NCBI GenBank assembly: GCA_030606485.1
Contig: JAUWGH010000007.1
Coordinates: 60,001 to 92,000 of the forward strand
Length of the DNA stretch: 32,000 nucleotides
From: Promethearchaeota archaeon
GTDB lineage: Archaea > Asgardarchaeota > Lokiarchaeia > Sigyniarchaeales > SOKP01
Reading direction: 5' to 3'
In this document: positions 11,626-14,600 of the stretch, piece by piece
Layout: every line of letters begins with the position of its first letter
How positions within the stretch are numbered: the stretch's first letter is position 1
Program-made: the position numbers and the translations under genes
Notes under the pieces: generated by a model
Databases searched by the model: none
Told to the model about the DNA's origin: nothing
The model's input: only the letters and a program-made list of their open reading frames with translations

Positions 11626-14600
11626 CGCCTACACTATTTGGTGGATATCTCGGCTTGGAAACCGATGAAGAGCGTGACAAGCTGCGATAAGCTCAGGGTA
11701 GTCGCAGGTAGACTCTGATCCTGAGATTCTCGAATGGGACATCCTTTCATGGCCTAATAATCCATGAAAACTCCGTTAGGGGTGGGGAACCCACCGAAGT
11801 AAAACATTTTAGTAGGTGGAGGAAAAGAAAACAATAGTGATTCCGTAAGTAACGGCGAGCGAAAGCGGAAATGATCAAACCGAATCCCCAAGGGAAACGT
11901 TGGGGAGATGTGGAGTACGGGTCCAGCACGACCTCGGTAATGAAGGTGAATACTTCTGGAATGAAGAGCTATAGAGCGTGATAGCCGCGTAACTGTAAAT
12001 TACAAGGTTGATACTGGATACCCAGAGTAGTGCGGGATGGTTTTCTCGTATGAATATGCCAGACACAAACTGGCAAATCTAAATATTCTCCAAGACCGAT
12101 AGCGAATTAGTAGCGTGAGCAAACGATGAAAAGTAACCCGGAAGGGTAGTGAAAAGTGCTTGAAACCAAATAGTTTGTTAAGGATGCGGCTCGAAAGGAT
12201 AGATTCTAGTCGAAGATAAGCTGGTAACAGTACATTCGAGACTAGAGGACCAGAGTTGCATCATCCGTCTGGAAACATGGGCCAGGGAGTTTATAGTAGA
12301 AGCGAGCTTAAGGAGATAACCTCTGTAGGCATAGGGAAACCGATATTTTTGCAAATGTATTATCACATTAGATTAATATAAAAATCTTCGGATATTTTGT
12401 ATTATCTTCTAAGGGATGCATCCAGAAAAATGGTCTGAAAGGGCCTAAAGTTTCTGCTGTAAAACCCGAAGCCAGTCGATCTATTCTTGGCCAAGATGAA
12501 GTCACTCGAAAGGGTGATGGAGGTCTGCAGGATAACTGACGTGCAATTCGTATTCATGAGCTGAGAATAGGAGCAAAAGGCTAATCTAGACTGGGTTTAG
12601 CTGGTTCTCCCCGAAGCTGGTCTCAGCCAGGTCTCAGTCGAGGTAGCCGGTGAGGTAGAGCACTAATTGGAAAGTAAGGGGAAGAGATTCCCCCCTTTTC
12701 TCTTAAACTCCGAATTTGCCGGCACTGTAGACACTGGGAAACGGGTTGGTGGCCGTAAGGGTCATCGCCGAGAAGGGAACAACCTAGACCTGGGTTAAGG
12801 CCCCAAAATGCAGGTTAAGTGTTAAACTAAAGGGCGTTATTTTTCGAAGACAGCAAAAAGATGGATATAGAAGCAGTCAATCTTTAACGAGTGCGTAACA
12901 GCTCATTTGCCGAGAAAAATAGCCCCGAAAATGGACGGGGCTTAAATCTGCTGCCGAGACCCAGGGGCACGAATAGAAGAATTCGTGATCCGGTAGGGGA
13001 GCGTCCGGTTCGGGCGGAAGCTGGGGGGTGACTTCCAGTGGACCGTTCCGGAGTGCAGATCCTGGCGATAGTAATAGCATAGATGGGTTAGAATCCCATC
13101 CGCCGAAAGGGCAAGGGTTTCTTCGCAATGCGTCGTCAGCGAAGAGTTAGTCGGTCCTAAGTGCATTCTTAAATGTTCTGCGCGAAAGAGAAACAGGTTT
13201 ATATTCCTGTACCACGGCGCTACATTTTGCGGTAACGCACGGAATTTTGTTGACAGTTTTAGGTAGGTGGAGTAGAGTTGTCGTACATCTCTCTATTTAA
13301 ATGTATAATGGTGGCGAGTAGAGTAAATTTGAGACCCACCAGAAAGCATGAATAGCCTTCCAAATGTGGAGGGTTCTGCTGATCCTGGGATTCAATGAAA
13401 AGGCAAAATTCAAGGAACGCCGTGTCCGTACCCAGAACCGACACAAGTGTATCAAATTTTGGAGCACTGTCGATAGGTGCCCCAAGGTGAGTAGCCTAAG
13501 GCGTGTTCGAGTAAAGGAGGCTAGGGAAATCGGCAAATTAGAGCCGTAACTTTGGGATAAGGCTTGCTTGAAAATTTCTGCATGCATTAGTGTGTAGGGA
13601 TCTTTAAGTCGCAGTGACTAGGGGGGGACGACTGTTTAATAAAAACATAGGTTTCTGATATCGCGAAAGCGTGTTTACAGAAACTGAAACCTGGCCAGTG
13701 GCAGTAGATCAATCCGCGGTCCAACGCGAGTAAGTCCTGCTAAACGCCGGGAGTAACTATAACTCTCTTAAGGTAGCCAAACGCCTTGTCTAGTAAGTTT
13801 AGACGTGCATGAAGGGTCCAACGTTCTCCCCACTGTCCCAGCCTTCTGACGAATGAAATCACACTCTGGAGAACAGTCCAGAGATACCTGTCGGGACGAG
13901 AAGACCCCGTGGAGCTTTACTGCAACCTGTTGTTGTGTTTTGGAATAAGATACAGAGTGTAGTCGGGAGCGTCGAACCATCAATTTCGGTTGGTGGGAAT
14001 GCAACAATGGAACACCGACTTTTTTATTTTAAAACACTAACGGCGCTTTAGGCGTTGAACAACCGCAGGCGGGCAGTTTGGCTGGGGCGGCTCACTCTAG
14101 AAAAGATATCTAGAGTATCCAAAGGTCAGCTCAAACGGGACAGAAATCCGTTGTAGAGTATAAGAGCAAAAGCTGGCCTGACAGGATTCTGCAAAGCGAG
14201 GAATCCTGAGGCTAACGCCTGGTCTAGCGATCCTCAGTATAGGTTTTTGTGGCTAGCTGAGGTGATAGAAAAGTTACCCCGGGGGTAACAGAGTTGTCGC
14301 GAGTAAGAGTCCCTATCGACCTCGCGGCTTGCTTCCTCGATGTCGGCTCTTCCTATCCTGGAGGCGCACATAACCTCCAAGGGTGGGGCTGTTCGCCCAT
14401 TAAAAGGGAACGTGAGCTGGGTTTAGACCGTCGTGAGACAGGTCGGATTCTATCTGACAGGTATGTTGGGAGATTGATGGTAAGGTCTCACCAGTACGAG
14501 AGGAACATGAGGCCGGCGCCTCTAGTTTACCGGTTGTCTGACAAGGCATCGCCGGGCAGCCACGCGCCAAGAGATAAGCGCTGAAAGCATCTAAGCGCGA

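Follow-up and report, generated by a model that had tools for sequence, protein, structure and literature searches.

The stretch analyzed here, which we call the window, is 32,000 nucleotides (nt) of the forward strand of contig JAUWGH010000007.1 (positions 60,001 to 92,000; assembly GCA_030606485.1) from a Promethearchaeota archaeon, and it carries the 23S (large-subunit, LSU) rRNA gene of that organism. The 3.75-Mb, 13-contig genome (designated G000) has a single copy of this gene, which is interrupted by 30 nt that are very probably a small hairpin mini-intron having a bulge-helix-bulge (BHB) core and spliced by EndA and RtcB. An earlier first-pass annotation, made from the sequence alone, had assigned the DNA to an Asgard archaeon, and this agrees with the NCBI placement of Promethearchaeota in the kingdom Promethearchaeati, the Asgard group, within the Lokiarchaeia lineage. 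The features of the locus are given below, a slash marking a predicted splice site.

11617..14798, plus strand: 23S (LSU) rRNA gene, the intron host (Rfam RF02540, 2601 bits, model positions 1-2987; single match in the genome)
13439..13442, plus strand: exon strand CGAC of the 4-base-pair (bp) central helix, pairing with 13469-13472
13443..13445, plus strand: 5' bulge of three nt, A13443 C13444 / A13445, with the predicted 5' splice site at 13444/13445 (from sequence)
13445..13474, plus strand: BHB mini-intron of 30 nt without an open reading frame (ORF), from the covariance-model alignment and comparison with the congener G001
13446..13468, plus strand: intron hairpin, stem AGUGU (13446-13450) with GCACU (13464-13468), loop 13451-13463 (RNAfold and relatives)
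13469..13472, plus strand: intron strand GUCG of the central helix, pairing with CGAC 13439-13442
13473..13475, plus strand: 3' bulge of three nt, A13473 U13474 / A13475, with the predicted 3' splice site at 13474/13475 (from sequence)
13476..13480, plus strand: start of exon 2; G13476 pairs with C13438, and the RNAfold minimum free energy (MFE) structure also pairs 13476-13480 with 13428-13432

The extent of the insert was given by two alignments. At the conserved CCGACAC-a-GGUGCC junction the Rfam covariance-model alignment placed 31 nt of the window against one model position, leaving 30 nt extra, and in a MAFFT alignment with the G001 23S gene the only indel of at least 6 nt over the entire overlap was 13445-13474, again 30 nt. 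Removal of these nucleotides gives CCGACACAGGTGCC, the CCGACAC-AGGUG junction found in G001 and in 24 intron-less genomes of the family. In the G000 sequence taken alone the splice boundaries can slide by 1 nt, owing to the A that follows both cuts. Because the intron of two congeners (G002 and G003) begins with T, the boundaries are fixed at CAC/.../AGG. In a copy of E. coli rrl that is 2905 nt long, the final C of CCGACAC is nt 1618, which places the insertion point at C1617/A1618 in the standard 2904-nt numbering; A1618 is the N6-methyladenosine (m6A) site. These results confirm what the first-pass annotation had read from the letters: a 30-nt BHB insert with these pairs and bulges, a single flanking exon-exon pair, a position near E. 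coli 1617/1618, restoration of the conserved motif upon precise excision (the restored sequence equals that of intron-less G001), and the lack of a homing-endonuclease ORF, as 30 nt hold none.

By definition (PMC7714728), a BHB motif has a central helix of 4 bp with a 3-nt bulge at either end, one in each strand, and the predicted precursor has this 3-4-3 arrangement. On the intron side the central helix is followed by a stem of 5 bp, the last being a U-G pair, which closes a 13-nt loop. On the exon side there is only one contiguous pair beyond the motif, C13438-G13476. A BHB in exact register arose in shuffled 30-mers at a rate of 2.1e-4. Other kinds of intron were considered and set aside. 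A group I or group II intron was rejected given the length of the insert, since the core of either needs more than 200 nt, and given that an Rfam scan of the window found no match to an intron family. A blastn-short search of the genome for further copies yielded just chance matches of 10-15 nt, and hence the intron is not a repeated element.

The same site was then compared in other archaea. Among 18 close relatives that have the relevant part of the 23S gene, G001 (same genus) lacks precisely the insert, G002 and G003 (also same genus) have another 30-nt insert at the identical insertion point, and G009 (a different genus) has a third insert sequence at the site. A scan of 400 genomes of the phylum, using a pattern without any requirement for an intron-side helix, added G182 and G258 as carriers; 34 of the 40 genomes matched by that scan were discarded as false, having been picked up via a downstream AAGGTG in intron-less genes. 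In total, six genomes of the family (f1) have inserts of 30-31 nt with four distinct sequences, all of which fold as a BHB. The site is assembled in 30 of the 135 genomes of the family, with an intron of 30-31 nt in 6 and none in 24, and the carriers are distributed as three of four genomes in genus g1, both genomes in g6 and one of eight in g2. The introns of G000 and G003 are identical at 19 of 30 positions, the flanking 23S sequence being about 98% identical, and the pairs are kept despite the divergence. The intron thus evolves much faster than its host gene with the pairing preserved. In another member of the family, G271, the contig (L110 = G271:C58) ends at 129963, exactly at the 23S insertion point. 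Intron polymorphism may have broken the assembly here, and the contig end gives no information on whether an insert is present.

Scans of the whole collection extended the survey, which the first-pass annotation had proposed for Asgard 23S genes at this site. They yielded about 13 different introns of Loki type (29-31 and 44 nt), together with same-site inserts of 33, 34 and 43 nt from other lineages, the 34-nt one pairing exon CAAC with intron GUUG. Matches in bacteria, Woesearchaeota and several other groups were rejected as false, for causes similar to those of the downstream-AAGGTG matches. Inserts of 44 nt having a BHB at the same CAC/AGG site occur in metagenome-assembled genomes of Thermoproteota (L058, L063 and L066) and in a metagenome contig (L071); those of L063 and L066 are identical here though binned under different taxa. 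A BLAST survey also turned up an intron of 51 nt at this site in a genome of a second Asgard family (G307), again with a U-A pair. The 3-4-3 BHB was present in all 22 of the same-site inserts examined, a count partly imposed by the scan pattern. The survey found same-site inserts in family f1 and in G307, and an intron with a probable endonuclease gene 2 nt upstream, in genome G273 (discussed below).

The divergence among the introns allowed pairing to be examined by covariation. In genus g6 an exon CUGAC is accompanied by an intron GUCA, a compensatory change of C-G to U-A in the exon:intron helix, and in L086 a G-C pair of the central helix is replaced by A-U. When 11 distinct introns of 30 nt were aligned without gaps, the first central pair was C-G in six rows and U-A in five. 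Paired cells made up 96.4% of this alignment vs 20-54% when the 3' partners were slid. Four pairs had changed on both sides, and the observed covariation score was reached by none of 500 shuffles. Within the intron stem three of the five pairs had changed on both sides among relatives. These patterns show that the BHB structure is maintained by compensatory changes.

The comparisons bear directly on the possibility that the insert is a small expansion segment, an additional hairpin that projects from the conserved loop and persists in mature 23S rRNA. Extra segments are a known feature of Asgard LSU rRNAs (Penev et al. 2020, PMC7594248), and the RNA runs used here give no more than a hint of removal. 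However, the insert pairs with the universally conserved CGAC bases of the loop and would sequester them if retained, and a congener with a near-identical 23S gene lacks exactly those 30 nt. Moreover, the 3-4-3 geometry is fixed in more than 20 divergent inserts from several phyla, for which a mere helix offers no reason. An RNA contig (X15, described below) also stops following the genomic sequence where the 5' splice site is predicted. We therefore consider a retained segment very improbable.

Sequencing runs provided a further comparison, that of DNA with rRNA-derived reads, which the first-pass annotation had suggested. Four read runs were examined, all as contigs, which cannot show absence, and stretches left uncovered in the RNA runs were not taken as evidence. 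The sequence was present in runs from several kinds of sediment (marine, cold-seep, salt-marsh and subsurface), among them the RNA runs X15, X16, X17 and X18 and the paired DNA runs X7, X9 and X2. In two studies (X2 and X7) that are distinct from the possible source sample, DNA contigs span 13195-13563 with 0-1 differences and no gap, so the insert is real DNA. The first-pass annotation had named a lack of support in genomic reads as a possible refutation, and these contigs show the opposite. An assembly or binning artefact is also contradicted by the independent contigs L105 and L088, which hold the same sequence, and by the related inserts in five other genomes. We found nothing in favor of an artefact and regard that explanation as refuted.

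On the RNA side, record 4 of run X15 is a 207-nt contig that fits 13247-13449 with one difference near its end and four letters left unfitted. The spliced sequence CAC/AGGUGCCCC predicts this pattern: its A coincides with 13445, a mismatch of G and A falls at 13446, GUG coincides with 13447-13449, and CCCC remains unfitted. At one difference from intron-less G001 within its span (about 13303) it sides with G000. The X15 contig thus diverges from the genome at the 5' splice site as a spliced form would, which is a hint of splicing. The joints that were listed, with skips of 90-418 nt and sides of 22-28 nt, have the appearance of graph joins between different organisms and were not used.

The same contig bears on whether EndA might excise the intron with the exon ends left unjoined, to give a fragmented 23S rRNA like that produced by bacterial intervening sequences. 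In favor of this, cleavage and ligation are separate steps. Against fragmentation, the X15 contig appears to run 9 nt into exon 2 past the junction, the genome encodes RtcB, and the BHB introns of archaeal rRNAs are known to be ligated. A permanently cleaved 23S rRNA therefore seems most unlikely.

The genome has the enzymes that splicing would need. Two proteins contain the N- and C-terminal domains of tRNA-intron endonuclease (PF01974 and PF02778). The first, the catalytic subunit EndA alpha (199 residues; L025:1174-1773), has the Tyr, His and Lys positions, and no gap interrupts its alignment to PDB chain 3p1z_B (E 3e-37), which extends through GINKPR...ELSLIEA. This segment, which includes the KPR loop, is the counterpart of the extra loop in crenarchaeal catalytic subunits. 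The second, the structural subunit EndA beta (206 residues; L026:1447-2067, minus strand), is a paralogue that lacks the His. The RtcB ligase (G000:C6:118950-120257) was matched at 579 bits. Asgard archaea are reported to have an (alpha-beta)2 EndA with an L1 loop that widens the substrate range (PMC5829648), and the EndA pair of this genome matches this (alpha-beta)2 architecture, of the crenarchaeal type with the broad-specificity loop. A tRNA gene elsewhere in the window (30245-30341, minus strand; Rfam 54 bits) has an anticodon loop of 31 nt vs 6 in the model, an intron of about 25 nt that ARAGORN missed. Since this tRNA carries an intron, EndA has a further substrate nearby. The 16S rRNA gene is found on a different contig (G000:C2:450044-450885; L112), where only model positions 4-828 were matched near the end of the fetched stretch; the gene may be cut by the contig end, and the contigs give no support for linkage of 16S and 23S.

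Cleavage and ligation in vivo are what we infer, and the predicted pathway would run as follows. In the primary transcript the intron GUCG would pair with the exon CGAC to form the 4-bp helix with its two 3-nt bulges, continued by the 5-bp stem of the intron. A heterotetrameric (alpha-beta)2 EndA would then cut after the second base of each bulge, i.e. after C13444 and after U13474. RtcB would join the exons, thereby restoring the universal CCGACAC-AGGUG loop, and would probably also close the 30-nt intron into a circle.

Several points weigh against this interpretation. The single contiguous bp of the outer exon-exon helix contrasts with the strict hBHBh' motif, the inner helix being 5 bp. 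RNAfold of 13425-13495 gave z = -0.68 relative to shuffles, so the local fold is no stabler than these and stability by itself is uninformative, and its MFE structure displaces the 5' bulge by one register. The RNA runs, available as contig data, listed no 30-nt joint, and an intron-less strain identical over 13247-13444 could also yield the X15 contig. Finally, the covariation data are partly circular, in that the search pattern itself dictated three of the four central pairs in the rows from metagenomes and the collection; this circularity does not affect the first central pair, the pairs of the stem or the six genomes from the 400-genome phylum scan. Concerning the outer helix, the motif is of a relaxed type and not a strict hBHBh', and relaxed motifs are reportedly accepted by (alpha-beta)2 enzymes (PMC5829648, PMC7714728). 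RNAfold also offers an alternative, a 5-bp GUACC:GGUGC helix (13428-13432 with 13476-13480) formed across a 6-nt internal loop. The same exon helix is predicted in precursors having the 30-nt, G273 and G307 introns. It would be non-native in mature rRNA and could, according to these predicted folds, replace the missing outer BHB helix. Covariation is uninformative for this helix because the exons are invariant. Weighing these points together with the comparative structure, the EndA alpha and beta proteins and RtcB, we consider it very likely that 13445-13474 is an EndA/RtcB-spliced small hairpin BHB mini-intron in the only 23S gene. The first-pass annotation had proposed an EndA-spliced minimal rRNA intron: the enzymes and the structure conserved among relatives uphold that proposal, and splicing in RNA is hinted at by the X15 contig. 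Its proposed DNA-RNA comparison, carried out on contigs, showed the insert on the DNA side and gave that hint on the RNA side.

The 23S genes of the family have other inserts as well. Relative to G000, additional inserts are present in G002 (L003), G009 (L005) and G022 (L007), opposite window positions 13769, 13912, 14368, 14434 and 14314. That of G002 is 31 nt at CUCUUA/AGGUAGCC and, folded by hand, gives a canonical 3-4-3 BHB (CUCU:GGGG, bulges UA/A and AA/A). G009 has 30 nt at CCCGUGG/AG, which by hand-folding is likewise a canonical 3-4-3 BHB (CCGU:GCGG, bulges GG/A and AA/A), and also has inserts of 38 nt and of 133 nt, the latter at GACCGUCGU/GAGACAGG. The G022 insert is 36 nt. Hence, this Lokiarchaeia-type family has a shifting, patchy set of mini-introns across conserved 23S sites.

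A much larger intron was found in G273 (L109 = G273:C218), a 1095-nt BHB intron at 51-1149 that is inserted 2 nt upstream (CCGAC/ACAGG). Its central helix is ACCG:CGGU with bulges AC/A and AA/A, and its termini are unrelated to those of the mini-intron. An ORF at 173-1102 of L109 encodes 309 residues with two visible LAGLIDADG-like motifs. The Pfam LAGLIDADG_3 score was 17.7 bits, below the cut-off of 22.5, and the Atlas neighbors of the protein are LAGLIDADG_3 clusters at 0.95. We call it a probable LAGLIDADG protein because of the two visible motifs and these neighbors. A phmmer search against PDB gave nothing relevant, and an NCBIfam match of 16 bits was judged spurious.

The G273 intron, lying in the same loop, could be taken to favor the suggestion of the first-pass annotation that the mini-intron is what remains of a homing intron which lost its endonuclease; decay of homing introns to ORF-less ones has been described in Thermoproteales (PMC4496867). 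The data fit this poorly. The G273 intron differs in site, central helix and termini, and a tblastn search of G000 found no homologue of its ORF. Introns at the exact site were at most 51 nt in all of our searches, the 30-nt length is common to many family members, and the 30 nt of the window contain no remnant of an endonuclease. The suggestion was therefore not sustained, and descent from a homing intron is in our judgment unlikely.

How the gene-less mini-intron persists can be viewed in more than one way. Most likely it is a neutral or selfish passenger that survives by keeping the EndA signal. A quite speculative view, which we think improbable, is that the CAC/AGG mini-intron splits the probable recognition site of the G273 endonuclease. 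The CCGACACAGG loop would then be a contested insertion hotspot, and the mini-intron would confer heritable immunity on the single ribosomal DNA copy and owe its persistence to this, in contrast to a neutral passenger. In a variant of this idea mini-introns may spread among conserved rRNA loops via reverse EndA/RtcB reactions.

Small introns of this kind have precedents. In Thermoproteales, the 16S rRNA genes contain an established class of BHB introns that form hairpins of less than 50 nt (Jay & Inskeep 2015, PMC4496867), and outside Thermoproteales 16S introns were at that time known only from Aigarchaeota (PMC4496867). Like those introns, the present one lacks an ORF, is shorter than 50 nt, forms a simple hairpin with a BHB core, occupies a conserved rRNA site, is distributed patchily and is a presumed substrate of the tRNA-splicing endonuclease. 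It differs in its Asgard (Lokiarchaeia-type) host, in being in the 23S gene and in its location at E. coli 1617/1618. The 44-nt inserts of L058 (Sulfolobales archaeon SKYB35), L063 (Pyrobaculum sp.) and L066 (Desulfurococcaceae archaeon) share the CAC/AGG site, the CGAC:GUCG helix and the 3-nt bulges; these Thermoproteota inserts differ from the present intron in having a longer stem (7 bp plus an extension) and an unrelated hairpin sequence, and in belonging to another phylum. We found no paper on these same-site inserts.

The 23S BHB introns of Crenarchaeota that carry LAGLIDADG genes, for example those of Desulfurococcus mobilis, Pyrobaculum and Aeropyrum, are hundreds of nt long and made mobile by their endonucleases. 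The present intron resembles them in splicing signal, enzyme, kind of host gene and conserved targets and is unlike them in being 30 nt long and gene-less.

Archaeal tRNA BHB introns (Marck & Grosjean 2003, as cited in PMC7714728) likewise have a 4-bp helix between 3-nt bulges and use the same enzymes, and they are of similar size, that of the window tRNA being about 25 nt; here the host RNA is instead an rRNA. The Asgard expansion segments ES9 and ES39 (Penev et al. 2020, PMC7594248) are also extra sequences in LSU rRNA genes. Those segments are retained, transcribed and located at variable sites, whereas the present insert is in a universally conserved loop and has a splicing signal. In the literature that we searched there was no description of BHB introns in Asgard rRNA, and a search on the intron names L1617-L1619 returned unrelated papers only. 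A preprint reports that Asgard tRNA genes are intron-rich and makes no mention of rRNA (bioRxiv 10.64898/2026.10.13.758758). Thus, the insert is a known kind of small rRNA intron in a new lineage and involves no new mechanism.

Such inserts break rRNA primers, probes and aligners and may break contigs at the rRNA genes of metagenome bins, of which the G271 contig end may be an example. For the organisms themselves, endonuclease-spliced rRNA introns, previously known from Thermoproteota and some related groups, very probably extend to the 23S genes of a Lokiarchaeia-type family of Asgard archaea. The reach of the tRNA-splicing machinery would thereby be widened in the closest archaeal relatives of eukaryotes, which fits with the intron-rich tRNA genes of the Asgard group.

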